The position numbers were made by a program, and so were the translations under genes. A model generated the notes under the pieces. The model saw only the letters and a list, made by a program, of their open reading frames with translations. It was not told the origin of the DNA and made no database searches. From Beijerinckiaceae bacterium (lineage in GTDB: Bacteria > Pseudomonadota > Alphaproteobacteria > Rhizobiales > Beijerinckiaceae): a stretch of DNA of 64,000 bases. Positions 1 through 19,151 of the stretch are shown piece after piece (the stretch's first letter is position 1; the number at the start of each line of letters is the position of its first letter). The stretch lies in NCBI GenBank assembly GCA_947476075.1, contig CANJPM010000003.1, positions 434 through 64,433 on the forward strand, in the 5' to 3' direction.

Positions 1-348
1 GGTGAAGCAAGTGATTTTTGCAATGAGAGGCGCCTCTTTTTATGGAAAAGAACGCTGAAATGCACGCCGATGCGCATAAAAATTAAATAATATCAGATAC
101 TTAATCACAAAAAACACACCCGGAAATAACATTTCAAAATATCACTAAAAAGATCGTTCCAAACTAATCTCAAGATAGTAAAGCTCAAGATCTTAGCTCA
201 GTCTGGAATCATGTGCGAAACGTCAATACAGTTTGCGCGCGCAGCCCAAAGTCCCTGCAAAAAAACGAGGAGCTTTCGCCCCTCGCCTGCACATCTCGTC
301 CACAAAACTTGATCTTTGCAATTCCGCTATTTGAAACGCGGACCCCCG

Positions 349-4030: not shown

Positions 4031-5539
4031 TTGGAAGTCCGCACGATGTCCACAAACATTCTTCCGCTGCTGTTTCGGGCAGTAAATCAATATGATTGGA
4101 CACAGCAAGAACTTGCGGAATTCTATCGCGTTGAAACAGTCCTTATCCAATCAGGCGTCTCGCTGGAGACTGAACGCGGGTTAAGTGACGAGGGAGATCC
4201 CTGGTTTGTTTTTTGTCGCCCTCAAACGGGCGATGTCGTTATTCACTTCGCACGGTACGGGAACGAATATGTTGCCGCAGGTGGAGGCTTGGATGGCGTA
4301 CTTCGAGGTCGCAGCTTCCGAGACATCATAGATTCCTTTATGAGTTGCCAACCCATGGTTGTTTCCAGAAAGGGCGGACTGGAAACCCAAGTCGTTCTAC
4401 ATCCTACGGCACTGCTCAGCGCATTTGTTACTACAGCTTTTTTCCTATTTATGGATGCAGAAGCTGATGCTGCTCCGAACATATCGGCTAGAGAAACGCC
4501 ACACGCCCCACCCGCTGCACAAGCTCGCGTTCCAGCCGTTTTTCAAACAATGATAGAAGCGGCAGGCCTGGTGGGAAACAGAGACGCCTGGCTGGCTCTA
4601 AGCACTGTCGCTATAGCGTTCTCAATTGATATCTTCGATTTTCGCGACTCAAATCACCCGGAAATTTCTGCGTATGCTCACCTTCAAGAAGCCGAAGGTG
4701 CTGCAATCGAAGTGGAATCCCTCGGTGCAAGCGTATTCGCAGACGACAAAAGTTTAGCCCCGAGAGCAATAGAAAAATGGACTAGCATCGATTCCAGCTT
4801 CACAACCGAGACCGTGCTTCCTGTCGATTCAACCGAGAGCATGGCAATAGCGTCCATTATTTCATCGGCTGAACTTGCTATCGATGTGTTGCGACCAACA
4901 GACAAAGACCCGCTTACACAGCAATACACCGCTATATTTATAAATACCGATGCGACAACGACTATCGAGCCGGAAAATTTACTACTACTCGGCGCGTTAG
5001 ACGATTCACTTGGGGACTTAAGACATTTAACCGTCGAGAAATCTGACGTTGAAGGATTGCAGATAAAAACAACCGAATCCAAGAGCGAAGCGTACTCGCT
5101 GTTATTAATATCTCTCGATACCTCACACAACAAAACATCAACGGGGTATCTAACGACCGCCCTTATAGATGCATTAATGCCAATTCCACACGCGGTCGGT
5201 ATTCCGCAAAATGATTTCTCGGCAGAAATAAACTTTGCAACTAAGGCAATAAGCCTATCGGGATTTAAAACTGAAGGCGTCGAAAAGAATCTCAATGTAC
5301 TTGAAGCTAAATCCGCCCCAGAACTTGCAACACAAGCGATAGAATGGTTTACCCAAAATCATCCTGATTTCAAAGTCGTCTCACTCGGTCGGAGCGTTGT
5401 CGTATTTGACTGGTCAACTAGCAATCAGCTTAGCAGTTCGATCGAGCTGCACACTTGGACAATGCATGACGGATCGACGATCAATATCATCGGATCTCTA
5501 CCTGATGCATTCTCAATTGATCTATCAGCAACAGCTTGA
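4031..5539 (+). CDS. Uncharacterised protein co-oriented with the XRE gene (likely start ATG 4046)
   Basis: 502-codon ORF; globular-looking N-terminus (WTQQELAEFYRVE...GLSDEGDPWFVFC...HFAR), Ser/Thr/acidic middle, compact C-terminal segment. Confidence 0.75.
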   Translation: MEVRTMSTNILPLLFRAVNQYDWTQQELAEFYRVETVLIQSGVSLETERGLSDEGDPWFVFCRPQTGDVVIHFARYGNEYVAAGGGLDGVLRGRSFRDIIDSFMSCQPMVVSRKGGLETQVVLHPTALLSAFVTTAFFLFMDAEADAAPNISARETPHAPPAAQARVPAVFQTMIEAAGLVGNRDAWLALSTVAIAFSIDIFDFRDSNHPEISAYAHLQEAEGAAIEVESLGASVFADDKSLAPRAIEKWTSIDSSFTTETVLPVDSTESMAIASIISSAELAIDVLRPTDKDPLTQQYTAIFINTDATTTIEPENLLLLGALDDSLGDLRHLTVEKSDVEGLQIKTTESKSEAYSLLLISLDTSHNKTSTGYLTTALIDALMPIPHAVGIPQNDFSAEINFATKAISLSGFKTEGVEKNLNVLEAKSAPELATQAIEWFTQNHPDFKVVSLGRSVVVFDWSTSNQLSSSIELHTWTMHDGSTINIIGSLPDAFSIDLSATA

Positions 5540-5554
5540 ACCAGCTTGAGGACC

Positions 5555-6056
5555 TCAACAGAAATCCACTGAAAGATCATCCGGGACTGTTCCAACAAAC
5601 AGAGCCGATTCTCTTGAATTTTTGCCTCGCTTGCTTGTCGCCTGTAATCTCCGAAAGACGTCTGATCTATTTGCGCTGAAGACAGCGATGGAGGGAGCAT
5701 CGGTTCAGATGGGGCAGCGTCGAATAAAGAACGTAGAGGCAATTATCTAGCGGAAGTAGCGTATGACGTCGGAACGCCAAGATCATTGCTTCTTCTTCAA
5801 CCGGCAACACGGCGGAATGGACAGCCCTCGGTCCCATCGGAAGATAGCTAACGGAGATGCGCTTAGGCCACTTCTAAACCGTTGTTTGACTGATCCCGTC
5901 GCGTTTGGCCAGCGCCCTTAGGCTCTCTTCACTCCGCTGTGCCTCTCGACGGACCGCCCCTGTCTTGCGGGCGCTTCCGTGTCAAACCTCGCCAATGACG
6001 CCTCCCGAAAAAAGCGACGATTATCCGCATCAACACTCTTCGGGACTAAGCACCTA
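5555..6056 (-). mobile_element. IS481-family remnant, 5' half (copy 1)
   Basis: Minus-strand translation ...SEESLRALAKR...EEEAMILAFRRHTLLPLDNCLY...LHRCLQR with stops; terminal repeat cgggactaagcaccta at 6041-6056; 5691-5830 has 10 mismatches in 140 nt against 8761-8900. Confidence 0.85.
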
Positions 6057-7316
6057 AGGCTTCAAACTACTGCGCGCAGGAGATAAGGATTTCCGCTTCT
6101 CAATAGAGACGGTCGGCTCGTTCCAGAGGCAACCGGTAAAGGTGCAGCGATCAACGTTTATTACCTCAAATACTTTTGCAAGGTCCCGCCACTCGTAATT
6201 ACTCGATAGATGAGTGTCACGGTCAACCAGCGCGGTTTGCACGGAATAGCTACCCACGCCAAAATTGGCGGGGAACTGAAGCGAAAAAACATATTGATCA
6301 CCCACTGCGGGCTTGGATATGGAGTGACCGGTGTGCCAAGTGTTGGTGCCGTACATAACCTGCCCTAGGCGATCCTTGATACCGTAGCCCAGCACCAGAT
6401 TGGGAATGGGCTTGTGCACCAACACGGTCACCCGCAGCTGCAGCAGCTCGCCTACGCGCACCACATCCACTCGGTTACCGGCTATGTCATAAAGGCTCAC
6501 GTCTTCCACGCTCGCCTCGCCGGTGCCAGAAATAGTCTGCACTCTCGCATCGGCGGTCGGCAACTGAGTGACCTGCGCATGCTCCTTATCGGCGATCAAG
6601 GCGTTATAATAATCCATCACTGCTTCGGGTTCGCCATCGAGCGCCACCCGACCACGGTTGAGCAATATGGCCCTATCGCAAATCGACAGGATTGCAGCCT
6701 TGTCGTGAGATACGATCAAAAGCGTCGTACCCTGCTCGCTAAACGTACGGATGCGGTCGAAGCTCTTATGCTGAAAGTACCCATCCCCAACCGACAAGGC
6801 CTCATCCACGATCAAAACATCCGGCCGCTTGCAGGTCGCGATGCTGAACGCCAACCGCATTTGCATACCGCTGGAGTAAACACGGACAGGCATATCTAGG
6901 TAGTCGCCGATCTCTGCAAACGCCTCGATCTCTGGCATTAGCGCACTGATCTCGTCCGTCCTTAGCCCAATGAGCTGCCCCGCCATGTAGGCGTTCTGGC
7001 GTCCAGTAAAATCGGGATGAAAGCCCATGCCAAGTTCCAGCAAGGCAGCCACTCGACCGCTCACGCTAACGCTGCCTGTCGTCGGTAACGTCGTTCCACT
7101 AATCAGCTTCAACAGTGTGCTCTTACCGGCTCCGTTAAGCCCGATAATGCCTACAGAATCGCCGGACTCCAACGTGAAGGACACATCTTGCAACACCCAT
7201 TTTAACTGGTGTCGTACACGCGAATACGGAACGATCCACTCCGCCAACCTCTGCCAACGCGAAGCGTACTGTCGATAAGCCTTCCCCGCACCACTGACCT
7301 TGATCGTTCCCATCAC
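6054..7316 (-). CDS. wzt: O-antigen/polysaccharide ABC exporter ATPase with C-terminal carbohydrate-binding (Wzt_C) domain
   Basis: GLNGAGKST Walker A, LLELGMGFHPDFTGRQN, YSSGMQMRLAF, IVDEALSVGD; ~170-aa beta-rich C-terminal extension. Confidence 0.95.
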   Translation of the reverse strand: MMGTIKVSGAGKAYRQYASRWQRLAEWIVPYSRVRHQLKWVLQDVSFTLESGDSVGIIGLNGAGKSTLLKLISGTTLPTTGSVSVSGRVAALLELGMGFHPDFTGRQNAYMAGQLIGLRTDEISALMPEIEAFAEIGDYLDMPVRVYSSGMQMRLAFSIATCKRPDVLIVDEALSVGDGYFQHKSFDRIRTFSEQGTTLLIVSHDKAAILSICDRAILLNRGRVALDGEPEAVMDYYNALIADKEHAQVTQLPTADARVQTISGTGEASVEDVSLYDIAGNRVDVVRVGELLQLRVTVLVHKPIPNLVLGYGIKDRLGQVMYGTNTWHTGHSISKPAVGDQYVFSLQFPANFGVGSYSVQTALVDRDTHLSSNYEWRDLAKVFEVINVDRCTFTGCLWNEPTVSIEKRKSLSPARSSLKP

Positions 7317-8104
7317 AGCTCGTCCACAATGTCGCCAGCGTGCTTCTTAAACAACATCACGCTAAAGACGCACAACGTTATGCTCAGAACAGCGACAACA
7401 GCCACCCTGCCCCAATCGGGCCAGCCGCCACTTACAAGAATGACCTGGTACCCTTCCATCAAAGGTAGCAGAGGGTTCAGCTGCATCATGGTGGCTGCCC
7501 ACTCAGGCAGGATGCTAACCGGGTATACAATTGGCGTAGACCAGAACCAAAACTGCAGCAACACCCCAAACAACTGCCCAACATCGCGAAAGAACACATT
7601 CAGTATGCCCAACACGCCGCCAAGCCCCGCAGCGAACAACAACTGAACAAGCAGCAAGGGCGCCAGCGCCAGCACCGACCAGCCGGGAAAATTTCCCGAT
7701 AGCAGCAAAAACGCGCCAAACAATCCTAGGACGATACTAAAGTTGAAGCCTGCGCTTAGCAATATGATCAGCGGCAGACACAAACGAGGGAAATTGAGCT
7801 TCTTGATAAGATTGGAATTGTCGATAAATAAATTCACCATTCGGTTCATGATGTCTGAAAACAAACCCCAAGTCAGGATGCCTGCGCATAAATAAATTGA
7901 ATAGGAAAATGCCCCATCCGACTCGGGCAGTCGAGAGCGCATCAAATGCGAGAATATGACGGTGTACACACCGATCACCGCCATTGGCTGAATTATTATC
8001 CAGGCAAAGCTGAGCAACGAATTTCGATACTTCGCTTGAATTTCACGCTTAACGCTACCAAGGATAAACCCTCGGAACTGCCACAATGCTATCACTGCGC
8101 CCAT
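7313..8104 (-). CDS. wzm: O-antigen/polysaccharide ABC exporter permease
   Basis: KREIQAKYRNSLL, NLIKKLNFPR, FFRDVGQ, WFWSTPIVYP motifs; 4-nt overlap with wzt. Confidence 0.95.
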   Translation of the reverse strand: MGAVIALWQFRGFILGSVKREIQAKYRNSLLSFAWIIIQPMAVIGVYTVIFSHLMRSRLPESDGAFSYSIYLCAGILTWGLFSDIMNRMVNLFIDNSNLIKKLNFPRLCLPLIILLSAGFNFSIVLGLFGAFLLLSGNFPGWSVLALAPLLLVQLLFAAGLGGVLGILNVFFRDVGQLFGVLLQFWFWSTPIVYPVSILPEWAATMMQLNPLLPLMEGYQVILVSGGWPDWGRVAVVAVLSITLCVFSVMLFKKHAGDIVDEL

Positions 8105-8267
8105 TCGTTACTCCGCTCATAAAGCGCTAGAAAAACCTCGGCATTCCGCTTGCGTTAAGCAATGCGCACAACCCACCTTGGCCGTGAGCTAAGACCGTTA
8201 GCATGAGGCGTATCAGGGCTGTACCGTCTGCGCAAACGCAGAAAGCGCTACTACGTAGTGATTTACC

Positions 8268-9128
8268 TAGGTGTTTAGTGCCGGAGAGAAGCGGTACGGC
8301 TCGAATTTGAATCATTGTGGCTCTTTTGTCCACATGCTTGCGATGTATTTGTAGTGCGTGAGCCCGTTCAGCGTTTTCAGCCTAAGCGCATGGTTGTGTG
8401 CGTCGAACAAGGGCTGAAGTTGTTGCCTAGTTTGGTCGTGACTGCGGTACTGATAGCGTTTGGCAGACGCTTCTTTGATGGTGCGTTTCATGCGCTCCAC
8501 CTGGCCATTCATCCATGGATAGTTGGGCTTGGTCAGGCGGTGTTCAATGTCGTTCTCGCGTCAGATCTGATAGAAACGCTGAACCCAGTAACGGGGTGCA
8601 GCCAATCCGGGTTGCGTCGCAAAAACCACAAAAATCAACTTAAGGATGATCCGGGGCTGTTACAATAAACCGAGCCACTTCTCTTGAAGTTCTAATTTGC
8701 TTGCTTGTCGCTTGTGATCTCCAAAAGACATGTGATCTATTTGCGCTAAAGACAGCAATGGAGGGAGCATCGGGTCAGATGAGGCAGCCTCGACTAAAGA
8801 ACGTAGAGGCAATCATATAGCGGAAGTCGCGTATGAAGTCGGAACGACAAGATCATTGCTTCTTCTTCAACCGCCAACACGGCGGAATGGACAGCCCTCG
8901 GACCCCTCGGAAAATATAGCTAACGGAGATGCGCTTAGGCCAATTCTAAACCGTTATTTGCCTGATCCCGTAACGTTTGGCCTGCGCCCTTACGCTCCCT
9001 TCACTCCGCTGTGCCTCTCGACGGACCGCCTCTGTCTTGCGGGCGCTTGCGTGTAAAACCTGACCGATCACACCTCCCGAAAAAAGCGACTATTATCCGT
9101 ACCATCGATCTTCGGGACTAAACACCTA
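8268..9128 (-). mobile_element. IS481-family element with both terminal inverted repeats but an internally deleted, decayed transposase (copy 2)
   Basis: IRs taggtgtttagtgccg (8268-8283) and cgggactaaacaccta (9113-9128), 15/16 complementary; C-terminal transposase remnant HRLTKPNYPWMNGQVERMKRTIKEA...RLKTLNGLT; N-terminal half at ~8670-9060; central DDE region missing. Confidence 0.88.
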
Positions 9129-9170
9129 ATTGACCGATAGATATTCCCCGGCAAGACCTACCTGACCAGA

Positions 9171-9462
9171 TCAACCATCTGTCGCTTCAAAACAGGCCTT
9201 AGATTTTACGCCTTTTCAAATCCTGCAGCATCTCCCTGTCTCGAGAAACGAAGGCAACCAATTACCTTAACCACTGGCTCTCGCCTTCAAGCTGCTTCAG
9301 GAGCTCAATCTAGAAAGGCTGCAGGCCGCCGTACTACTTACGCGATTGTAAAATAGGGCACTTCTGACGCCAGCATAGAGCCGAACCTTCCGGAACCGCC
9401 CACTCATCGCCTCGCCTAAGTGTAAACGCGATCTGCAGCGCACTGAACCTCCACTTCTTCAT
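9171..9462 (-). pseudogene. IS3-family orfA remnant
   Basis: Minus-strand translation MKKWRFSALQIAFTLRR...YGGL...LLKQLEGESQWLR*LVA...DREMLQDL resembles IS3 OrfA (MKKSRFTEEQI...LKQLEEEN...DKEMLQD) with internal stops. Confidence 0.7.
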
Positions 9463-9693
9463 TGGTCAACTCGCCCGATCAGATCAGCTTAAAACAGAAT
9501 TTCTTTAGCAACCGTCGTCCGAAAACTCAGCCGAAGGACACCATAAACAATGCCTCTCTAAGCTCGAAGACTACCTCCTCGCAACTTCGCCTCATCCGAT
9601 CGGTCGCCGGTCCTCTATGGGCCTCAGCAATCATGAGACAGAGCAAAACTTTTAAGGAACAAGACCGCTTTGAGAATTATCAATACACAACTC

Positions 9694-11931
9694 TCACATG
9701 TTGGCTCCCCTCTTGATTTCGTGGAGAATGCTTTCTGCTGTAGACGCCCAAGAAGTCGGCCGATACGCACTTTTAACGCGATCAGACAATTCTACTAATT
9801 TTTCTCTATGGGAAAGGAAGTAGGAGATAGCAGCCGCCCAGCTTTCTGCACTATATGGCGACGCAAAAATAGTAAGCTCAGGTGCAATCTCCAGCATGCT
9901 TGAGACACCGGAACTAATGCAAGGCCTACCAGCTTTAAGGCTTTCTGCCACAGGGAGCCCCCACCCCTCATACAAAGCTGGGAAAAGTGAGAAAAGACAA
10001 TTCTCATACAACCACTGCAATTCCTGATCGTCGACATCTGTCGCTATCTGAACCAATTCATTAAGAACGCGGTCATTATTGACTTGGAAGGTTACATCTC
10101 CATCCATAAAACCTCTCCTCCCAACCAGAATAAGCTTCGGAAGCTTGGAGTCATGATGCTGAGCAAGCAACCGGTATGCATTGAGGAGACAAGTCTGATT
10201 CTTGCGCACCTCAAGTGTGCCAACAGAAAGTAGAAAATCGCCACCATTGCCAAAACGCGTCACCTCCTTAGTCTTAGGACCAAGCGGGGAGAAATCCTCA
10301 CCCAAGCGGATAACCTTTATGCATCCAGCCCTCTCTTCATCGAGAGCGAACAAAGAGACCATGTCATTCTTGGTGCATGCAGAAATAGAAAACGCGCCGT
10401 CGCATAAAGCAAATACATCCTTGCTCCAGCCACGAAAATAGTCACCAAAACCAATCCCCTGCTCGTAAAAATATGGGAAAATTGCTGGAATTAGATCATA
10501 AAAAACCTGATAAAATTTGACACCTTCAGCTTTGATCTTTTGGATTTGCTCCCGGTAGGACGCTAATGCCCACCCCGCACCCGCAGTAAAAAATACGTCC
10601 CCTTCGGAAAAACGCACAGCTTCTCCCAACCTGAAATTCCGAAAGTCACCTTCGAGCAAATGGAAGCAGCCAACTTTTTCATCAAGCGCCACGAACTGGA
10701 TTTCCGGATGCAGATCTCGCATGGCCACTGCAAGGCAAAATACTGTGCGAGGAATTCCCGTCACATGACCCTGCCAATGTAACAAAGTGGAATAGTCAAA
10801 GTATATTTTCATCTTCTTGGCCCCGGGGAGTCCTGGATAGTGATTTGCTAATACGTCAAGCATGCAAGAAGCGGTGAGATCCCAGCTTGTTTGCTTGTAA
10901 GCTAATTTTACTAATTCCGAAGCCTGCTTCAGTTTTCCGGGGTTGTCGGTAAACTCGCGTATCGCATTCACCCATTCATCCAAAAGTAACGGATGTGCAT
11001 GTTTTACCAGCCCAGGCGCAATCTCACGCATGCTAGACGTACCAGAGGCTATGCATGGCTTGCCGAAAGAAAGACTTTCCGCAACTGGAAGGCCCCAACC
11101 CTCATAGATAGATGGATAGACCGTAAAAAGGGCCTCACTATAAAGATGCTGAAGGTCTCCATCAGATACACCCTGCAAGATAAACACACGGCCAAAAAGA
11201 CGCGGGTCATTAGCAACTTGGTATTCGATGTCGTGATCTAGCCAGCCTTTTTTTCCTACAATCAAAAGATTTGGCGGCTTATACTTTTGTATGTCAACCA
11301 TATAACGATAGGCGTTCAGAAGCAAAATATGATTTTTGCGATACTCCAAGGTGCCAACGGAAAGGATGTAAGGAGATTCAGTATATTCAATTATGCGCTG
11401 TGTGGGCAGCTCGCACGAAGTTGGCAATTGGTCTCCGAGGCGGATAGGAAATATTTCTGGACATTTTAATCCGCTTGCACTGGCATATGAAATAATATCC
11501 TTACGAGTATGTTCGGAATTAGAAAATGCCAAGTCAGAAGACGAAAGCGCTTCCTTGAACCATCTCTCATATTTTTCCGAGAATCCGGTACCGTAAGAAT
11601 ATGGAAGAATTATAGGAATAATATCGTGAAAAAAGGTTACTATTTTTACGCCATTTTCTCGTAAACTTATCAACCGGGCATGGTGAGCTGGGTAATCCCA
11701 GTTGGCGCCAACCGTTACGACCACGTCGCCTGCGGTAACCTTAATCAATTCTCCACGCCGCCGTCGCTCAATGTCATAATGAGCACAGCCGCCGGTGTGA
11801 TCAAAAATGCCCAACAGAACCGATGGTGAAGCGCTACACAAATGCTGTCCTGCCTCAAGCACAACCCTCTGGATCCCAGTGGGATGCCCCGCCCAACTCG
11901 CGAGCGTTGTGCAATCAAAAATCAACTTCAT
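9694..11931 (-). CDS. Two-module GT4 glycosyltransferase (WbdA/WbpX-like)
   Basis: Two ~370-aa repeats, each starting MK(L/I)xFD..H.TGI.R and containing VGTLExRKN and (S/A)xYEGWGLPVAESL; second module starts at ATG 10812. Confidence 0.92.
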   Translation of the reverse strand: MKLIFDCTTLASWAGHPTGIQRVVLEAGQHLCSASPSVLLGIFDHTGGCAHYDIERRRRGELIKVTAGDVVVTVGANWDYPAHHARLISLRENGVKIVTFFHDIIPIILPYSYGTGFSEKYERWFKEALSSSDLAFSNSEHTRKDIISYASASGLKCPEIFPIRLGDQLPTSCELPTQRIIEYTESPYILSVGTLEYRKNHILLLNAYRYMVDIQKYKPPNLLIVGKKGWLDHDIEYQVANDPRLFGRVFILQGVSDGDLQHLYSEALFTVYPSIYEGWGLPVAESLSFGKPCIASGTSSMREIAPGLVKHAHPLLLDEWVNAIREFTDNPGKLKQASELVKLAYKQTSWDLTASCMLDVLANHYPGLPGAKKMKIYFDYSTLLHWQGHVTGIPRTVFCLAVAMRDLHPEIQFVALDEKVGCFHLLEGDFRNFRLGEAVRFSEGDVFFTAGAGWALASYREQIQKIKAEGVKFYQVFYDLIPAIFPYFYEQGIGFGDYFRGWSKDVFALCDGAFSISACTKNDMVSLFALDEERAGCIKVIRLGEDFSPLGPKTKEVTRFGNGGDFLLSVGTLEVRKNQTCLLNAYRLLAQHHDSKLPKLILVGRRGFMDGDVTFQVNNDRVLNELVQIATDVDDQELQWLYENCLFSLFPALYEGWGLPVAESLKAGRPCISSGVSSMLEIAPELTIFASPYSAESWAAAISYFLSHREKLVELSDRVKSAYRPTSWASTAESILHEIKRGANM

Positions 11932-11934
11932 AAC

Positions 11935-14919
11935 TCAGAACAATCCATCATCTTGAGAAACTACATCGCGGACAAAGGCAGGAAGCGACTCGAGAATCAC
12001 CTCCCACGTAAGTGCAGCGACGCTATCGCTGCGTGGATAACGTTCTAGAGGATGAGATTTGACCACAAGCCTAGCAAGCCCATCCGCATCTGCAGTAAGC
12101 GAGACACCACCTTCATTGGAGAAATTCTCAAACCCCCTGAAGGAGAACTCAGACCCCAGCACGCACTTACCTGACAATAAGGCTTGGGCTGTCTTGAGGT
12201 TTGATCCCCCCCCCTCCCAGATCGGCAGAACAACACCGCTAGAGCACATAATAGCCGAAGTGATATCGTCTCCTGGTACTGGGCCAAGAATATGTAACCA
12301 AGGAAAGTCGTCTTGGCGGAAGCCCACGGCCTCGTTGACCAAGCAATTTCCCACACTACCCAGCACCCACAACGCCATCCTTTTCGTCCCATCATCGAGC
12401 AATTTCAGTGCCTTTAATAAATCACGCAGACCGTTGATGTTAGGTGGGTGACAACTCCCAACGAAAACCCAATTTCTATCCTGAGCAGAAAAGCGCCTTC
12501 TCCACTTATCGTCTTCCGAGGTCGCTCCTAACTTTGAATGCCCATTAGAGTACACACTGATAGCTTTAGAAGGAGAAACATCTCGAATATAATCTGCATC
12601 GTCCGATGTGACTGCTATAGCAGCTGAACAAGAACGGATAGCAGCCTTCTCAATTGCATCTACATATGCAGCATACTTACTTGCTAAAACAGCAGGGTAA
12701 TACTTTTTATAGATTTCTCTCTTTATATGAACCTCGATGTTTTGTGAACTATAGATGACACTAACTCTTTTACAAATTATGCCATCATTCATAAGCCGTT
12801 CAACCAACGGCCATAAGAAAGGCTGCTCTATTATAATTGAGTCCGGAGAATAATCGCGAACCAAGTTAGCGACTTTTGAGTAACAGGCGGACTCGTGATC
12901 AAGATAAGTGTTTATTCCAAAATCAGACGTTATGCCATCAATGCCTAAGCTGCCCCATTTTCGTTTGTCGAGGACAACAGATTTCGTTCTGGTGTCAGAG
13001 TATTCTCCCCATTCAAAAGACAACGTCTGAACATCGAAGCGCGTCCTAAGCGCATTACGAATGTGATGACAGCGTAACTTGCCGCCATGATCCGGGTTTT
13101 CTAAGCTGTAAGTTGTCATTTGCAAAATTCTTGATCGTCCGTCCTCTTTTGACGCACTGCGGGCATTAACACGACCAACATCAGCATAACGGACAATGCC
13201 GGATTGACTGCTAATTTTTTGCTGCTCCCACCAACTCTCTATGTAAACTGGTAATTTTCCAACACGACTGAACCGACCTGAAAACTCAGTCCCAAAGAAC
13301 GACATTTTCACATCAGAAGCCCGAACAATTCGCTCGCAAGGTAGTGAGCCTTGCCGCCCAGATCCTACAAAACCAGCGCCATGATGCACAATGAAATTGG
13401 ACTGAGAAAGACCGCGTAGCCTTGTCTTAATGATAGGAAAGCGATTAAGAAAAGCACGCACCCGGCTAGCCAAACGAGGCCGCGAGACGACCCAATTTCT
13501 TACAAGCAATATCGCATAAGGCATGACGATACTAAGCCTGAAATCTCTTTTTAGAGTGAGGTAGCCCACCGCCCATTGAGCAAAAAGTCGGGCCTTATAC
13601 GTGACTGAACGGAATGGTGCGGTGATTCGCCACGAACGGCTTTGATAAATGGCCATAAGCTGCTGGGCGGCCTGTTGGGCTTTGGCTTCTGCATGCCGAG
13701 TTTCGGCTTCAGCCAGCTGAATCTTTACTTGAGCTTGCTGAGCTTTTGTCTCAGATACATGGTGACCGAAGCGTATATACCTATCAAATACATTTGGTGG
13801 GTAACGCAAGAAAGCCAACAACTCCAGCCTCTCAGAAGCTAGATAAAAACGATTTAATCCATCAGTATAGGCTAAGAGATAGTTAGCGCCTGTTAGAACA
13901 ACCTCCCAGTCGTGATGAACTTCTTCTTGCGAGTTGGGTTTCGTAGCTTCAACGACGACAATCCATGGACGGAATTTGTCAAAATCCATCCCGTAAATTA
14001 CTTCTTTCTCAAAACCTTCGACATCGATCTTTAAGAAATGAATATCTTTTTTAGCATGTTCAGCGCAAATGTCACGCAATGGGAAAACTGGCACCTTCTG
14101 CCAAGCGCCAACATGTCCATTCGCTTCATGCATTGCAATTACATCTAGAGATGCAGTCGCCCATCCGCGTACGTTGCTTTCCCATATATCAATGTGCCCA
14201 TGCAGATCTCCTGCAGCGCAAAACAGATTAATGTCTCTATTGCGCGCTATGCTCAAATCATCAAAATGAGACTTTATTGGTTCGATATTAACTCCGCTCC
14301 AACCTCTATCGTAAAAAGCTTTTGTCACAGAATCGACAACCGGATCATTGGCTCCGACATCGATATAAAAACCATTTTTGATATGCTTAAGCGCTCGAAA
14401 TAGCATAACATCTTCGTAGTTTTGGGAAAACGTTATAAAATCTCCTTTTAAGTTAGCGCCCTCAAATGCAATAAAACCTTCTTCAATTCTAACGATTGTA
14501 TTCACCCCATATAGATGGGCGATTATAGCCAATCGACGGTGACCATCAAGTTGACCACACTGTTCACTGATAAAAATAGGAGGAAAATCATTTTTCTCTG
14601 AAGGAGATTTGAACCCACAGCTCTCAATATCATTCTTCAACTTTATAAATTTGTTCCAGGTGAAATCATTTACTCCGATACTGGATCCTTTTATTTTTGA
14701 GCAATATACATTGAAAAAATTTTCACAATTTTTCTCAAGGCTAATATAAAATGGCGACTCTAGAATAGAGTCAACAATGATTGTTCCTTGATCAACCCAG
14801 TGTCCAATTGGTAAATCAATCAACTTAATATAACCATTTTTTGGGAGTGGAGCTCGCTTATAATTTGATATACATTTTACATCCATGACATTACCCTTGG
14901 ATTCACCCGCGACGTGCAC
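11935..14919 (-). CDS. Multidomain protein: ParB/Srx-like N-domain + FkbM methyltransferase + coiled coil + GT-B-like glycosyltransferase domain
   Basis: DGHRRL at aa125-130; FSQNYEDVMLFRAL...YIDVGAN...GVNIEP...LKIDVEGFE (FkbM); Q/A/E-rich helix ending YQSRSWRITAPFR; C-terminal FVGSCHPPN...GGGSNLKTAQAL. Confidence 0.85.
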   Translation of the reverse strand: MHVAGESKGNVMDVKCISNYKRAPLPKNGYIKLIDLPIGHWVDQGTIIVDSILESPFYISLEKNCENFFNVYCSKIKGSSIGVNDFTWNKFIKLKNDIESCGFKSPSEKNDFPPIFISEQCGQLDGHRRLAIIAHLYGVNTIVRIEEGFIAFEGANLKGDFITFSQNYEDVMLFRALKHIKNGFYIDVGANDPVVDSVTKAFYDRGWSGVNIEPIKSHFDDLSIARNRDINLFCAAGDLHGHIDIWESNVRGWATASLDVIAMHEANGHVGAWQKVPVFPLRDICAEHAKKDIHFLKIDVEGFEKEVIYGMDFDKFRPWIVVVEATKPNSQEEVHHDWEVVLTGANYLLAYTDGLNRFYLASERLELLAFLRYPPNVFDRYIRFGHHVSETKAQQAQVKIQLAEAETRHAEAKAQQAAQQLMAIYQSRSWRITAPFRSVTYKARLFAQWAVGYLTLKRDFRLSIVMPYAILLVRNWVVSRPRLASRVRAFLNRFPIIKTRLRGLSQSNFIVHHGAGFVGSGRQGSLPCERIVRASDVKMSFFGTEFSGRFSRVGKLPVYIESWWEQQKISSQSGIVRYADVGRVNARSASKEDGRSRILQMTTYSLENPDHGGKLRCHHIRNALRTRFDVQTLSFEWGEYSDTRTKSVVLDKRKWGSLGIDGITSDFGINTYLDHESACYSKVANLVRDYSPDSIIIEQPFLWPLVERLMNDGIICKRVSVIYSSQNIEVHIKREIYKKYYPAVLASKYAAYVDAIEKAAIRSCSAAIAVTSDDADYIRDVSPSKAISVYSNGHSKLGATSEDDKWRRRFSAQDRNWVFVGSCHPPNINGLRDLLKALKLLDDGTKRMALWVLGSVGNCLVNEAVGFRQDDFPWLHILGPVPGDDITSAIMCSSGVVLPIWEGGGSNLKTAQALLSGKCVLGSEFSFRGFENFSNEGGVSLTADADGLARLVVKSHPLERYPRSDSVAALTWEVILESLPAFVRDVVSQDDGLF

Positions 14920-15030
14920 TGCTTGTTACCGATAGATTGAAGCGTGATTGTTTTGTTTCTCTAAAAAGGTAAGATTATACATAAGCGGATGTCTGGCATC
15001 ATTAAACCGAAAATATGTTACAGACGAATG

Positions 15031-15605
15031 GCGCAAGATACATGGGAAGATATTTTGCCCCGGGGCTCTTTTCTACATGTTGGGGCAGCGATAGATGGCC
15101 TCCACGCTCGCCACCCAATCAACGAATCCAAAAGGATTAGCCCAACTTCATACCCTCACGAAATAGGAAGCTCCGCGGCATTAACGAGCCACGCTTGATC
15201 GTAAACGCAGCAACGTTTTATCCGTAGCACAAACGCTTGACGTATCAACGGCAAGACTGCGTTCCACTCGATCGTTGCTTTGTACCTGTCGATAGTCCCG
15301 TTTTCCAGCGCGCCGCGGACAAAACCGAGTCCCAGCGTTAACCCCGAATCTTGGCATGAAACTTTTTCAAGTCAAACACAGCCGAGCCGCATCAAGCTTT
15401 TCCTCCTCCGAAACCCCGGCCGTCCCTTCGAAAAGCATCTTGCCCCAAACTGTAATCTGATTGTGTTGAACGTCAAATAACTTGGCCAATTCGGCAGACA
15501 TTTCCTCTCCATTGACGGTGGGAAAGCCAGTGCTCATTTTAGATTTTTCCTTAAAGTCCGGCGCAGTCTGATCGTCATGCGCTCCGTTGCCTCGTACATT
15601 ACACC
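15031..15605 (-). pseudogene. IS3-family orfA/orfB remnant
   Basis: ATG at 15578 (MTIRLRRT); frameshifted ...AELAKLFDVQHNQITVW..MLFEGTAGV, KKFHAKI, and VEAIYRCPNM*KRAPGQNIFPCILR resembling IS3 OrfB IEAIYRRPNTSKPAPGHKIYPYLLR. Confidence 0.72.
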
Positions 15606-15820
15606 ACGTGCAGCAAATTTTTGTCTTATCCAAGCCGTGCATTTTTTTCGGCGCTACCACTAAACGCCCTCGACAAGGCGAAACTGGGCTGGTCTGGGAC
15701 AAATAGTAATCTATAGATTTACAAATGTTCGCAATAGCTTTTCACCTGTTCAGGTAACAAACTGCCCTATTGGCCCGGCTTGTATGTTCGTTGCCAGGAA
15801 GTTTGGAAGTTGAACACGGT

Positions 15821-16855
15821 ATGAGCAAAACAGCCCTTATCACCGGCGTGAGTGGTCAAGATGGCGCGTATCTCGCGCGCTTCTTGCTCGAGCTGGGCTA
15901 TAGGGTTGTCGGATCTCAGCGTCGATCTTCCTCCTTGAATACTGCGCGTCTGGCTTATCTTGGCATCGAGAAAGATGTCGAATACGTCGACATGGATCTT
16001 GTCGAAATCACCAATGTCATGCGTGTCGTTGAAGAATTCGAACCAGATGAGATATACAACCTTGCAGCACAGAGCTTTGTGGGCCTCTCATTCGAGCAGC
16101 CAATTTATACGGCAGACGTAGACGGACTTGGAGTTACGCGACTTCTTGAATCTATCCGTGTGATTAATTCAAAAATCAAATTCTATCAGGCGTCGACCTC
16201 GGAAATGTTCGGCTCTGTTGAGCAAACGCCACAGACTGAGAATACTCCGTTTTTTCCGCGCAACCCCTATGGAATTGCGAAGCTTTACGCCCATTGGATG
16301 ACGACCAATTATCGAGAAACCCATGGAATTCATGCATGCTCGGGTATCTTGTTCAATCATGAATCGCCTCTGCGCGGGAGAGAGTTTGTAACGCGCAAAA
16401 TCACCTCGCAGCTCGCGATGGTGAAGCATGGTCATCAAGATTATATGTCGCTCGGAAATATTGACGCCAAGCGGGATTGGGGCTTTGCAGGAGATTATGT
16501 AACGGGTATGTGGCGGATGCTGCAGAGCGAGAAGCCCGGTTCCTACGTCCTCGCTACAGGCGAAGCAAAGTCAGTGCGCGACTTCGCGCAGGTAGCAGCT
16601 CTAGAGCTCGGTTTCGATGTTGTTTGGGTCGGAAACGGCGTCGATGAGCGCGGAGTTGATCGTAAAACGAACCGCACGATCATAACAATTGATCCAAAAT
16701 ACTATCGACCAATCGTCGTTGAATCGCTGGTGGGGTCTCCACTGAAGGCGGAGATGGAGCTCGGCTGGACGCGCAAGGTTGGCTTTGCCGAGCTTGTTGG
16801 CGCAATGGCTCGCTCTGACGACAAGCAGGCTCAAGACCGATCGCTAGCTTTTTGA
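15821..16855 (+). CDS. gmd: GDP-mannose 4,6-dehydratase
   Basis: KTALITGVSGQDGAYLA, YNLAAQSFV, FYQASTSEMFG, PRNPYGIAKLY, GILFNHESPLRG, RDWG. Confidence 0.97.
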   Translation: MSKTALITGVSGQDGAYLARFLLELGYRVVGSQRRSSSLNTARLAYLGIEKDVEYVDMDLVEITNVMRVVEEFEPDEIYNLAAQSFVGLSFEQPIYTADVDGLGVTRLLESIRVINSKIKFYQASTSEMFGSVEQTPQTENTPFFPRNPYGIAKLYAHWMTTNYRETHGIHACSGILFNHESPLRGREFVTRKITSQLAMVKHGHQDYMSLGNIDAKRDWGFAGDYVTGMWRMLQSEKPGSYVLATGEAKSVRDFAQVAALELGFDVVWVGNGVDERGVDRKTNRTIITIDPKYYRPIVVESLVGSPLKAEMELGWTRKVGFAELVGAMARSDDKQAQDRSLAF

Positions 16856-18019
16856 TCAACGAATATTAAAGGCGTTTCCAGCACGTCGATAGATCTCCAT
16901 CGTCTGCAAGGCTGCAACCTCCCACGTTAGAGAATCTGACCCACGCGTATCGCTCAGGCCAGAGCTTTGAGACGCATCGGATAGCGCCTCGCTCCAACGA
17001 TCAATATTCATTGTCTCTACAAAAAGACCGACCCCGCAGCTCGCCTCATGATGTGGCGGTATATCAGACGCAATGATGCGCGCACCTGCTGCTCGCGCCT
17101 CCGCAATGGGCATCCCGAACCCCTCATACATAGAAGGATAGAACATAGCGCGCGCGCTCGCGTAAAGATCGCGGAGCTCATCGTCTGAAACGTAACCAAG
17201 CAAGCGCAATGAACCGCTTTGTATGAGCCGCTCCGCCTCCTTGGGCATAGTCGCTCGGGACCAGCCTTTCATGCCCGCCAGGACGAGCGGGAAACGCTGC
17301 TGAATAGGCGCAGGGCATTGCGCATAGGCGCGAATAAGCGTTGCAAGATTCTTGCGTGGCTCAAGTGTGCCAACACATAAAAAATATAGATCTGCTGTGA
17401 GGTCGTGCTTGGCCATGGTTGCCGATACTGAGGCCGTACGAAAGAAGACATCGTCGACCCCCGGCGTTGCGACCACAATTTTTTGGCGATCAACGCCGTA
17501 GTAATCGACAATTTCTTTAGCCGTAAATTCGGAGATCGTATGGATGACAGGCACACTGGAGATCTGCTTGTCCAGCCCCTCCATCCACCGAATTCGCTCA
17601 ATTGGATGGTGCTGCGGAAAGCGCTTGTTTGACAAGTCGTAGATCACCGGAACGAACGGCAAACTTGAGAATGATGGCGGACGATAGAGAAAAGCGTGGA
17701 AGAAATCAGGCCGTACATATGGGACCGTTGCACGATAGAAGCCTGCACGCAGAATTTGACAAGCTTTGCGCACAAGACGGATACTGAGCAACAATTGAGT
17801 AGCGGAATGCTTGACGTCGCCGATCACGGGTGCAGGCTCGTAATGAGCAGACGTAACACGCTGCCAATCGAACACATTGAACGCAAGATAATCGACATCA
17901 GCGGTAAGCTGCGTAATCGCCCGCATCAAGGAAACCTGGTACTTGCCGACACCCGTTCGCAAATTCAGAAACGGCCTTAAATCGACTGCGATACGATGCT
18001 TAACTGGGCGCCTAACCAT
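16856..18019 (-). CDS. GT4 glycosyltransferase (WbpY/WbkA-like)
   Basis: TGVGKY, VGTLEPRKNL, YPSMYEGFGMPIAEA; start taken at ATG 18019, overlapping the upstream gene stop. Confidence 0.92.
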   Translation of the reverse strand: MVRRPVKHRIAVDLRPFLNLRTGVGKYQVSLMRAITQLTADVDYLAFNVFDWQRVTSAHYEPAPVIGDVKHSATQLLLSIRLVRKACQILRAGFYRATVPYVRPDFFHAFLYRPPSFSSLPFVPVIYDLSNKRFPQHHPIERIRWMEGLDKQISSVPVIHTISEFTAKEIVDYYGVDRQKIVVATPGVDDVFFRTASVSATMAKHDLTADLYFLCVGTLEPRKNLATLIRAYAQCPAPIQQRFPLVLAGMKGWSRATMPKEAERLIQSGSLRLLGYVSDDELRDLYASARAMFYPSMYEGFGMPIAEARAAGARIIASDIPPHHEASCGVGLFVETMNIDRWSEALSDASQSSGLSDTRGSDSLTWEVAALQTMEIYRRAGNAFNIR

Positions 18020-19151
18020 TTTCTGCACAACTTTCCGATATGCTGCATAGCAGCTCTTCGAGCCGCGATTGATAGGTCGCCTGATCATAGAGCGCGGAAG
18101 CGCGAGCCCGCGCATTTGTTGAAAGTTTGCAGCGCATAGCATCATCTGTGAGCAGCGTATTGATTGCAGCCGCTAGCCCAATAACGTCGCCCGGAGAGAT
18201 CGTCAGAGCTTCGATCCCGTGGCGGGCGACTTCAGGAACTGCGGTTGGAATTTGAGTGTTCACGATTGCGCATCCGCAAGCCATAGCCTCTACCTGCGCT
18301 ATGCCAAATGTTTCTGCAGAGCTAATAGACGGAAATGCAAAAACTGAGGCGGCGTTCAGCAGTGCGATAAGGTCACATTGTGAAAGAGATCCGACCAGTT
18401 CAACGCGATGATTAAGCCCTGCTTCATTAATCAGAAATTGCAGCGCATCCCGCTCCGTGCCCTCGCCAACGATGGCGATGCGCGCCTGAATGTGCCTCGC
18501 AGCCTCGATGAGAACATCGAAACCTTTGTACTTGACGAGTCGACCACAGGCCGCCACGAGAGGCAATTTCTCGCCATCGAGCTCTTGTTTGAACGCAGCT
18601 CCACTGTCGGAATTGAAGATGTCCGTGTCGACTGCGTATGGAATGATTGCGCACTTGTCTCGAAACGCCTCGAGGATAGATCCAGCGTAGGCGATCGTCG
18701 GGTGCGAGATGATGATGCGATCTGCTCTCTTCAATGATCTCCGTATCAACGGCTTGATCAGCCGATAGATCAACTTCTGCGAGACTATATGCGAATGCCA
18801 ATAGATAACTAGCTTCTGGCGACGTCGTAGGAACAGGCCGAACACAAGATCGGCGAGCGGGAAAGGCGCATGCATCATAAGCACGTCAGCTTTGCGCGAG
18901 CGGAGCCAAAGCACAAAGGGATAGATCGGTGCGATGGGCAGCGACATCAGATCGCCCCATGAGCGCACGCTCTCTAAGACGACACCGTTGCTGACTTCTA
19001 TCGGTCTTGGTGTCTTGCTGGTGACGAGGATCGATTGTTCAAACTTCTCAGGCGCCAATCGCGATACGATATCGATCACGTACGGGATACCGCCAAAAAC
19101 ATCGGGATAGAAGACTTTGTATGAATGCAAAATGTGTATCTTCGGGCGCAT
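18012..19151 (-). CDS. GT4 glycosyltransferase (WbpZ-like)
   Basis: ILHSYKVFYPD..GGI, YWHSHIV, GRLVKYKG, ETFGIAQVEAMACG. Confidence 0.92.
   Translation of the reverse strand: MRPKIHILHSYKVFYPDVFGGIPYVIDIVSRLAPEKFEQSILVTSKTPRPIEVSNGVVLESVRSWGDLMSLPIAPIYPFVLWLRSRKADVLMMHAPFPLADLVFGLFLRRRQKLVIYWHSHIVSQKLIYRLIKPLIRRSLKRADRIIISHPTIAYAGSILEAFRDKCAIIPYAVDTDIFNSDSGAAFKQELDGEKLPLVAACGRLVKYKGFDVLIEAARHIQARIAIVGEGTERDALQFLINEAGLNHRVELVGSLSQCDLIALLNAASVFAFPSISSAETFGIAQVEAMACGCAIVNTQIPTAVPEVARHGIEALTISPGDVIGLAAAINTLLTDDAMRCKLSTNARARASALYDQATYQSRLEELLCSISESCAENG

Follow-up and report, generated by a model that had tools for sequence, protein, structure and literature searches.

A divergent ParB/Srx-like domain fused to FkbM, coiled-coil and GT4-like modules in a candidate chain terminator of a Beijerinckiaceae surface-glycan locus

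Chain termination sets the length and the export of ABC-transporter-dependent surface glycans, whose transporter reads the cap, and to our knowledge few capping enzymes, and few kinds of cap chemistry, have been characterised. The locus described here raises the question of what a rare, unannotated N-terminal domain could be doing in a protein that is otherwise built like a chain terminator. The window (the whole 64,000-nt stretch of Beijerinckiaceae DNA that was analysed) carries a gene in a surface-glycan (O-antigen) locus whose predicted product is a fusion protein that combines, as known terminators do, a methyltransferase, a coiled-coil spacer and a glycosyltransferase (GT)-like domain. 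A previous reading of the letters alone (the sequence-only reading) had reported the open reading frame at 11935-14919 on the reverse strand, and the frame is real, being open throughout, with 994 codons counted from GTG 14919. Starting at this GTG would add 11 residues; ATG 14886 is the likely start because AAGGG lies 9 nt upstream of it and because the resulting 983 residues equal the length of a homologue from an independent assembly (P0002, 98% identity). The same architecture is found in this homologue and in another of 1008 residues (P0003, 61-68% identity), so the fusion that the reading had proposed to look for elsewhere does recur, and in both contigs the gene that comes after it encodes a two-module GT4 protein. 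The copy in the window and the 98%-identical one (in locus L005) are separated by 7 differences only, for which dN/dS is uninformative. The protein begins with the N-domain, followed by the FkbM domain, an Ala/Gln-rich helix of 43 residues, the motif SRSWRITAP and a set of basic helices; a disordered linker then leads to the GT4-like GT-B domain (Table 1).

Table 1. Positions in the window of the fusion gene, of its parts and of the neighbouring genes discussed in the text.
Feature	Position	Strand	Basis or remark
Whole gene	11935..14886	(-)	983 codons + stop; likely start ATG 14886
N-domain, aa 1-150	14437..14886	(-)	rare unannotated family, ParB/Srx-like core
Box I-like helix + loop (WNKFIKLKNDIESCGF...PP), then PIFI strand	14578..14658	(-)	best-aligned hhalign block
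Box II / P-motif GxxR (G115-H-R-R118, within LDGHRRLAII)	14533..14544	(-)	G115, R118 invariant
FkbM-family SAM methyltransferase domain, aa 152-372	13771..14433	(-)	PF05050 E 1.1e-25; TIGR01444 E 3.2e-14; AF2 pLDDT >90
Ala/Gln-rich helix, 43 aa, presumed coiled-coil spacer	13642..13770	(-)	AF2 helix 373-415
SRSWRITAP motif closing the coiled coil	13615..13641	(-)	family consensus SxSWRxTxPxR
Basic helical region, aa 425-494	13405..13614	(-)	AF2 helices 423-442, 454-467, 470-482, 484-494
Low-confidence linker, aa 495-585	13132..13404	(-)	AF2 pLDDT <50 at aa 496-545, 563-577
GT4-like GT-B domain, aa 586-983	11938..13131	(-)	non-canonical donor-site motifs; AF2 pLDDT ~90
745-aa protein, two canonical GT4 modules	9694..11931	(-)	PF00534, two stretches, E 1e-36; adjoins fusion gene
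wzm	7313-8104	(-)	ABC2_membrane E 5e-22
wzt with Wzt_C cap-binding domain	6054-7316	(-)	ABC_tran + Wzt_C E 3e-33
gmd, GDP-mannose 4,6-dehydratase (6-deoxyhexose precursor)	15770..16855	(+)	TIGR01472 437 bits > equivalog cut-off 415

The part of the protein that follows the N-domain is of a common kind, hundreds of relatives sharing the order FkbM, helix of variable length, SWRxTxP and GT domain, and one of these relatives is named 'O-antigen chain-terminating methyltransferase' in its source. The FkbM domain and the helix of about 40 residues ending in SRSWRITAP, both described by the sequence-only reading, are recovered by profile matches and by the AF2 model respectively, the latter with an unbroken helix across residues 373-442. 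The candidate cap-adding module, FkbM, lies directly N-terminal of helix 373-415, a placement read from domain order only. We presume from the model that the spacer is a coiled coil. Relatives give weak Alanine_zipper matches, and the distance from YPPNxFD to SWRxT, which is 19-258 residues in 48 relatives, is 47 residues here, in the lower part of that range; if the helix works as a ruler, a short ruler might mean short chains. The basic helical region beyond the motif is conserved in four relatives (P0028, P0029, P0031 and P0037) and is a candidate for contact with the membrane or with a partner. The C-terminal module also occurs in fusion with other enzymes that might add caps: a class-I methyltransferase in P0057 and a carbamoyltransferase in P0031 and P0037. 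The carbamoyltransferase relatives have an SRSWRITAP-type motif as well. The GT-B-like domain was likewise read correctly from the letters, although its Pfam match is weak (26 bits for a cut-off of 27): in a Foldseek search of the AF2 model it matches retaining GT4 enzymes with E values of 7e-14 to 1e-9 and TM-scores up to 0.71 (MshA, sucrose-phosphate synthase (SPS), PimA and WaaG). The donor-binding R-K pair of GT4 enzymes is replaced by H-x-P-N in this domain; of the two Glu of EX7E only the first is present, Gln standing in place of the second both here and in the four closest relatives sharing the C-terminal module. Both the R-K pair and EX7E are retained in the locus's four canonical GT4 modules. 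Since the canonical donor-binding residues are missing, the GT-like domain may be non-catalytic.

The two-module GT4 neighbour is the presumed polymerase partner, and in P0057 such a GT4 module is fused to the same C-terminal domain. Besides wzm, wzt and gmd, the locus contains genes for GT4s and for WaaL-like, WbpM-like and WbpL-like proteins. The Wzt_C domain that had been noticed in the neighbouring wzt is there, and the best solved match of this Wzt is that of A. aeolicus, over the full length including the cap-binding domain (CBD; E 9e-72). The A. aeolicus CBD binds a plain 3-O-methyl sugar, the cap being 3-O-methyl-Man/Rha; in the locus studied here the mannose/6-deoxyhexose pathway gene gmd is present. 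In the methyl pocket, the methyl-stacking Trp362 and Ala348 are conserved here, whereas Leu300 is Gly, Thr346 is Gln and the trap loop differs. The main text of the A. aeolicus WzmWzt paper does not contain the word 'methyltransferase'.

The resemblance to the known coiled-coil chain terminators is, as far as sequences tell, architectural: among the PDB sequence matches of residues 170-983 no solved terminator was found that would indicate homology to WbdD, WbbB or ORF6. With WbdD (E. coli O9a / K. pneumoniae O3, O8/O5) the protein has in common an ABC-transporter-dependent locus with a Wzt CBM, a methyltransferase, here a putative terminating one, placed N-terminally on the coiled coil, and a C-terminal region, here presumed to be membrane-proximal, by a multi-module polymerase (PMC3482155, PMC11231755). 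However, WbdD lacks a GT domain and pairs its class-I methyltransferase with a eukaryotic-like kinase, whereas FkbM, ParB/Srx-like and GT4-like domains are combined here. With K. pneumoniae O7 ORF6 and O12 WbbB it shares the presence of a terminator module, a coiled coil and one or more C-terminal GT modules in a single polypeptide. ORF6 includes a CBM and, beside its methyltransferase, a cryptic kinase that was found only by modelling (PMC11231755); this kinase is AmiN/APH-like and placed after the methyltransferase, and the GTs are GT2, while WbbB terminates with a beta-Kdo transferase. Unlike either of them, the present protein has its ParB/Srx-like domain before FkbM, and a GT4-like domain with altered motifs. 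Given its locus, its architecture and these precedents, it is probably a terminator or capping protein.

The N-domain appears to found a very rare family. Searches with the single sequence and with profiles gave no usable Pfam, NCBIfam or PDB sequence match, only 21 proteins were matched among 1.8 billion representatives, and even with E values as high as 10 allowed, PF02195, the ParB_N Pfam model, matches neither the target nor one of the 16 family members searched. The ParB/Srx pattern that the sequence-only reading had pointed out, in strings that lie where it had placed them, nevertheless exceeds chance at the profile level. In hhalign, the family aligns with 20 divergent PF02195-matching sequences at 86% probability (P 5e-6, score 39.3) and with all 47 ParB_N sequences at 71% (P 3.6e-5), against a maximum score of 17.8 and probabilities of at most 1.7% in the controls (40 column shuffles and one reversed). 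The alignment is in register over a helix, a strand and GxxR. Its Box I part runs from W77 to G91, through the loop and PIFI, along ParB 'l..SI...G..qPI.V', with W77, F80, L83, I87 and G91 invariant or nearly so in the family and with AF2 placing a helix at 77-90 and a strand at 104-107. Its Box II part has G115 and R118, invariant across 16 family sequences, in register with ParB G-x-r-R. R118 is the sole invariant polar residue, and the family alignment holds no invariant Asp, Glu or His as a candidate catalytic base; in two members Asn replaces D114, and the residue preceding R118 is His in most of them and Arg here. In those ParB-fold proteins that bound NTP in one survey, changing the GxxR arginine to Ala abolished the binding (PMC12704722). 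Box III, the second P motif, is absent, the domain ending about 25 residues past Box II with no equivalent conserved block, and it is often missing in orphan ParB-fold proteins (PMC12704722). The family also has a conserved aromatic patch (ESPYY, Y61, W77).

Structural comparison points in the same direction, weakly. The AF2 model of the whole protein gives the N-domain a pLDDT of about 50, an effect of misaligned short family sequences in the long alignment, and a dedicated model was used instead (pLDDT 78.8, pTM 0.75). With it, the only compact Foldseek match in PDB is sulfiredoxin 6ky4, whose E value of 2.1 is the best there (61 columns, rmsd 4.2); in the viral library BFVD the best E value, 0.054, is not significant, and about 10 of the best 46 proteins are annotated as ParB/Srx. 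A likeness of residues 16-60 to the activation segment of Nek7 kinase (45 residues, E 0.09-0.14) was rejected as chance, since only Nek7 entries and no other kinase family were involved, the stretch is short and AF2 has beta-hairpins there. A profile match to the GhpA grappling-hook protein was also discarded as the sum of weak repeats, and so were the repeat-driven partial matches of P0007, a tandem-repeat protein, and P0014, a giant protein whose 90% cluster members are named Calx-beta domain-containing. The likeliest reading of the N-domain is that of a ParB/Srx (ParB-CTPase fold) module which has diverged strongly but retains Box I and the phosphate-binding motif GxxR, and the fold assignment is itself likely. 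Like the known members of the fold (PF02195: ParB, sulfiredoxin, SerK, SbnI and orphan fusions), it has the Box I helix and loop, the PI.V strand and the Box II GxxR, and is a small module found alone or fused; unlike them, it is missed by PF02195, lacks Box III, carries an additional beta-sheet at its N terminus and two helices as insertions, and is partnered with FkbM in a glycan pathway. The words FkbM, glycosyltransferase and polysaccharide do not occur in the main text of the survey of ParB-fold proteins (PMC12704722). Among proteins of this fold are enzymes that use ATP (Srx, SerK, SbnI), and fusions with SAM methyltransferases were found to bind ATP (PMC12704722). Whether the N-domain binds an NTP seems to us evenly balanced.

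The company that the N-domain keeps is informative about its possible role. It is fused to FkbM also in P0005 and P0006 and to RgpF in P0015, it occurs with only a coiled coil and SWRxTxP in P0011, P0012 and P0017, and in L004 it stands alone with an FkbM gene 3.7 kb away; a search for related loci added only three, with little context. In close relatives of the FkbM domain, the slot N-terminal to it is taken by another FkbM in P0043 and P0045 and by a sulfotransferase in P0050 and P0053. These fusions and the enzymes that otherwise fill the slot make a second, nucleotide-dependent capping step plausible. However, the closest relative of the remaining protein (P0028, 62% identity from FkbM to GT) has no N-domain, and neither has the FkbM-to-GT body of P0029, so that the N-domain is dispensable for the basic design. 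In a quick FkbM tree whose search was left unfinished, the three FkbMs that carry an N-domain cluster with P0030 (SH-aLRT 86), a grouping compatible with a single gain of the N-domain and no proof of it.

We tentatively propose, as a model that falls somewhat short of probable, that the protein acts as chain terminator and assembly scaffold of an ABC-transporter-dependent O-antigen pathway, with the N-domain as an NTP-dependent second modifier. The GT4-like domain and the basic helices would keep the protein at the membrane, beside the two-module GT4 polymerase, and the Ala/Gln coiled coil would place the N-terminal enzymes at a distance of some nanometres from this polymerase, where a glycan of sufficient length could reach them. 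FkbM would then O-methylate the non-reducing terminal sugar, probably mannose or a 6-deoxyhexose given the presence of gmd, which would stop elongation and provide a cap for the C-terminal domain of Wzt, with export to follow. At the tip, the N-domain would bind a nucleoside triphosphate and make a second nucleotide-dependent modification on the same terminus, for which phosphoryl transfer from ATP would be the likeliest chemistry. That the N-domain is a second cap-modifying enzyme is in itself doubtful, and it is unlikely to be specifically a kinase; it is likewise unlikely that it is a carbohydrate-directed phosphotransferase, or another NTP-dependent transferase, adding a phosphate-type group at the ruler tip beside the methylation by FkbM.

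A more specific version was that of the sequence-only reading, whose capping enzyme stands as regards the architecture and locus of a coiled-coil terminator and the ParB/Srx-like N-domain, and fails to gain support as regards a kinase and a phospho-methyl cap. Here, the ParB/Srx-type kinase would phosphorylate the terminal sugar and FkbM would methylate the phosphate, giving a methyl-phosphate cap like that of WbdD in O9a. The retained GxxR in a ParB relative, the repeated fusion or proximity of the N-domain to FkbM, its position at the tip of the ruler, the sulfotransferases in the same slot, the cryptic kinase of O7 ORF6 and the change of two of four A. aeolicus methyl-pocket residues would all agree with it. 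FkbM-family enzymes, however, are hydroxyl O-methyltransferases, and we know of none that methylates phosphate; moreover, P0028 and P0029 would cap without an N-domain, the closest solved CBD reads plain O-methyl through a Trp that is conserved here, and the N-domain family has no invariant catalytic base. Such a cap is therefore improbable. The same lack of a base, together with an NTP-binding Arg as the only invariant polar residue and the dispensability of the domain, would suit a nucleotide-binding module that is no enzyme and tunes terminator timing or coiled-coil assembly by switching or oligomerising, as in the N-engagement of ParB, an NTP-dependent switch being the canonical role of the fold (PMC12704722). 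We consider this unlikely, because true enzymes occupy the slot in relatives and because members with only the N-domain and a coiled coil would be left with no catalytic part.

Still less probable is a module that binds a ligand or a partner with no nucleotide chemistry, the ParB-like core being an inherited scaffold only. Such a module might keep the end of the glycan in place for FkbM, in the manner of the CBM of O7 ORF6, or dock another protein; its aromatic residues could suit sugar binding, and 17 of 28 ParB-fold proteins tested bound no NTP (PMC12704722). However, G115 and R118 are invariant in the GxxR register, and W77, like F80, lies in the Box I helix and is probably a core residue. 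Finally, the likeness to ParB/Srx could reflect convergence or chance, with the N-domain being an orphan fold, in keeping with the missing Pfam match, Foldseek E values above 0.05 and full-domain TM-scores of 0.23-0.37. This is very improbable in view of the hhalign score, which none of the 41 controls approached, the in-register alignment, the enrichment of ParB/Srx annotations among weak Foldseek matches in two libraries, and the reciprocal weak HMM matches, which include a ParB-like protein with DGHRR.

As this protein shows, the widespread FkbM, coiled-coil and GT design has an exchangeable N-terminal slot, which in one relative or another is taken by an additional methyltransferase, by a sulfotransferase or by the very rare ParB/Srx-like module, and which predicts new cap chemistries. 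The protein would also bring the ParB-CTPase fold to glycan biosynthesis, by way of a family that is invisible to Pfam-based surveys. Should the phosphotransferase function be true, terminator kinases would have evolved independently in three forms, the N-domain being the third, a ParB-fold enzyme would for the first time be seen to act on glycans, and the proteins made of N-domain, coiled coil and SWRxTxP would be stand-alone phosphate-capping terminators. Against the proposed role, the family also has stand-alone members outside glycan loci (L002, L003); in favour of the ParB/Srx assignment, three of its members weakly match a phage DNA methyltransferase family.

The fusion protein is encoded by a single open frame of 994 codons when counted from a GTG, with a Shine-Dalgarno-like AAGGG 9 nt upstream of an ATG at 14886. 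Starting at this ATG gives 983 aa, the same length as P0002, which comes from an independent metagenome assembly and is 98% identical, and residues are numbered here from that methionine. The sequence-only reading described the ORF and its parts correctly: the strings it quoted are in place, and the FkbM domain, the helix and the GT domain are all seen. FkbM is recognised by PF05050 (E 1.1e-25) and TIGR01444 (E 3e-14), and beyond it Pfam and NCBIfam recognise in this protein only both halves of a GT4-type glycosyltransferase, weakly. Foldseek relates the C-terminal domain, taken from an AlphaFold2 model of the whole protein (58-row alignment, mean pLDDT 78.3), to the retaining GT4 enzymes MshA, sucrose-phosphate synthase, PimA and WaaG (E down to 7e-14, TM up to 0.71).

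Features of the O-antigen locus, of a neighbouring ORF and of the fusion protein (positions in the window unless marked aa)
Feature	Position	Strand	Remarks
ORF, 502 aa	4031-5539	+	between T1SS-like ABC/HlyD pair and wzt
wzt	6054-7316	-	with Wzt_C cap-binding domain, aa about 255-420
wzm	7313-8104		
Non-coding/degenerate sequence	8127-9460		flank of two-gene module
Insertion-sequence remnant	8312-8512	-	rve_3 integrase fragment
Two-module GT4 gene	9694-11931	-	745 aa, two canonical GT4 modules; 3 nt from fusion gene
Fusion gene	11935-14919	-	
FkbM domain	aa about 152-372		confident, pLDDT above 90 (AlphaFold2)
Single long helical stretch	aa 373-442		AlphaFold2
Further helices	up to aa 494		AlphaFold2
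Disordered linker	aa 495-585		AlphaFold2
C-terminal, GT4-like domain	aa 586-983; 11938-13131	-	confident (AlphaFold2)
Non-coding/degenerate sequence	15367-15702		flank of two-gene module
GT4 ORF	16856-18145	-	
GT4 ORF	18012-19151	-	
gmd		opposite to fusion gene	match above equivalog cut-off

The body of the protein, from FkbM through the coiled coil to the GT domain, is part of a large family that is annotated but uncharacterised. In nearly all of its 536 relatives (query aa 176-994 in the 994-aa numbering) the FkbM domain starts almost at the N-terminus (residue about 14), followed by a helix of highly variable length leading to a conserved SxSWRxTxPxR motif and by one to three GT modules. 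Between YPPNxFD and SWRxT, the spacer spans 19-258 aa (median 71.5, n=48 sequences) and measures 47 aa in our protein. Its C-terminal module, made of the SWR motif, basic helices and a GT4-like domain with 'GSWHxPN' and 'GGGSNLKTAQALLS', is common to several architectures: it is preceded by FkbM in P0028 (62% identity across the whole body) and P0029, by a carbamoyltransferase in P0031 and P0037, and by a class-I methyltransferase in P0057, which carries the source name 'O-antigen chain-terminating methyltransferase' and ends in a fused GT resembling the two-module GT4 neighbour of the fusion gene. These last three proteins have coiled coils of 200-300 aa and a Gln at the second EX7E Glu; those with a carbamoyltransferase are candidate carbamoyl-capping terminators. 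In close FkbM relatives the slot N-terminal to FkbM is occupied by a second FkbM (P0043, P0045) or by a sulfotransferase of the Sulfotransfer_2 type (P0050, P0053), which suggests doubly methylated or sulfate-plus-methyl caps.

In the known terminators WbdD, WbbB and Klebsiella pneumoniae O7 ORF6, a cap-type enzyme that can be exchanged is joined to a variable coiled coil and to a GT region that lies near the membrane beside the polymerase (PMC11231755, PMC3482155), and the same logic is found in our protein and its relatives. As no sequence homology to these three was found, the likeness is architectural, and the fusion protein would act like this class of coiled-coil terminators by analogy, without being homologous to it. 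Two things are new here: the ParB/Srx-like family at the N-terminus, and the realisation that there is a slot in which a 'second cap enzyme' can be exchanged. The GT end also has its peculiarities: whereas the R-K pair and both EX7E Glu are kept by all four canonical GT4 modules in the locus, neither the pair nor the second Glu is present in the GT4-like domain, which has 'GSCHPPN' in place of the canonical 'GTLExRKN' and 'EGGGSNLKTAQA' in place of 'EGWGLPVAE'. Since the altered motifs are kept in the closest relatives bearing this module, the domain may act as a transferase of a non-canonical kind or only as a scaffold.

The N-domain (aa 1-150) had no match in Pfam, NCBIfam, PHROGs (for the fusion protein itself) or PDB sequences, and searches of 64 other species-representative genomes of the genus and 400 of the order did not find it. 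An exhaustive phmmer search of 1.84 billion representatives matched only 21 proteins, of which 2-3 are spurious repeat proteins. The true members have in common the pattern ESPYY ... Y ... W..F..L...I...G ... PI.V ... GQxDG(H/A/T)(H/R)RLAIL..L.G....V...G, with W77, G115, R118, G127 and G137 invariant; R118 is the sole invariant polar residue, D114 becomes Asn in two members, and the position preceding R118 is His in most members and Arg in our protein. A resemblance of aa 16-60 (14740-14840, minus strand; 'GYIKLIDLPIGHW...SILESPFYISLEK') to the DFG-to-APE activation segment of the kinase Nek7 (E about 0.1) was judged to be due to chance.

A dedicated AlphaFold2 model of the N-domain (13-row alignment, pLDDT 78.8, pTM 0.75) shows an N-terminal beta-sheet, two helices, helix 77-90, strand 104-107, helix 116-126 and strand 131-135. 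With this model Foldseek returned no significant match in PDB or BFVD; the sole compact PDB match was Arabidopsis sulfiredoxin (E 2.1, 61 columns, rmsd 4.2), and roughly 10 of the 46 top weak BFVD matches (best E 0.054) are annotated as ParB-like nuclease, ParB/sulfiredoxin, partition protein, DUF262 or DNA methylase. PF02195 does not detect the family. Aligned by hhalign with 47 PF02195-matching domains from related genomes, the family alignment reached 71% probability (P 3.6e-5), rising to 86% (P 5e-6, score 39.3) with the 20 divergent non-chromosomal ones, against at most 1.7% and a best score of 17.8 in the controls (reversed and 40 column shuffles). The matched block places the ParB 'L..SI...G..qPI.V' helix-loop-strand and G-x-r-R in register. 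Among the tested ParB-fold proteins that bind NTP, replacing the arginine equivalent to R118 ended the binding, and loss of Box III, which is absent from the N-domain, is common in orphan ParB-fold proteins (PMC12704722). That survey took PF02195 as its starting point, and the words FkbM, glycosyltransferase and polysaccharide are absent from its main text. The N-domain is thus probably a highly divergent ParB/Srx-fold module.

Several observations favour a functional, glycan-directed role for this domain. It lies ahead of FkbM in two FkbM lineages (the fusion protein with P0003 and P0006, and P0005), behind an RgpF rhamnan-synthesis domain in P0015, and forms with a coiled coil ending in SWKxTxP the whole of P0011, P0012 and P0017; in locus L004 its gene is 3.7 kb from an FkbM gene. 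The same slot in FkbM relatives carries real enzymes, and the ParB fold includes the ATP-using enzymes Srx, SerK and SbnI as well as ATP-binding fusions to SAM methyltransferases (PMC12704722). A second enzymatic modification by the N-domain is a tentative hypothesis. The L004 contig, of metagenomic origin, has the stand-alone N-domain gene and the FkbM gene at 2684-3097 and 6800-7543; it has many small, very basic ORFs and may stem from a phage.

The sequence-only reading went further and suggested that the N-domain may be a kinase, or another module that uses nucleotides, and that the cap is of a phospho-methyl type. The terminator-type architecture and the divergent ParB/Srx-like domain are supported, the latter by hhalign, but a kinase specifically now appears unlikely: P0028 and P0029 do without the N-domain, no catalytic base is invariant in the family alignment, and two stand-alone members (L002, L003) lie outside glycan loci. 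The Wzt of the locus also argues against it. Its best solved match, full length including the cap-binding domain, is Aquifex aeolicus Wzt (E 9e-72), whose own cap-binding domain binds a cap that is simply 3-O-methyl-mannose or -rhamnose (PMC9445017). Taken together with the other points, the simplest cap would be a sugar that FkbM has O-methylated. Of the A. aeolicus pocket, the methyl-stacking Trp362 and Ala348 are kept, Leu300 is replaced by Gly and Thr346 by Gln, and the trap loop differs, so the cap may be related, rather than identical, to 3-O-methyl-mannose or -rhamnose.

The fusion gene lies within a low-GC island (44-52% versus 60-64% in the remaining window) that is an ABC-transporter-dependent O-antigen locus. 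Beyond the genes tabulated from wzt onward, it encodes a WbpM-like dehydratase, an SDR and a WecA/WbpL-like initiating transferase and has a Wzy_C/WaaL-like gene; from wzt to the WbpL-like gene it covers about 6.0-24.3 kb. The pair of fusion protein and two-module GT4 recurs on the contigs of P0002 and P0003, followed on the latter by a transposase-type HTH_32 gene, and looks like a horizontally moved cassette. In the window this two-gene module sits between non-coding or degenerate stretches and in the lowest-GC part (44-47% versus 60-64%; GC profile 8000-16000). The 502-aa ORF at 4031-5539 is without a Pfam or NCBIfam match. As listed, the two further GT4 ORFs share 134 nt, and the downstream one (16856-18145) therefore probably has a later start codon.
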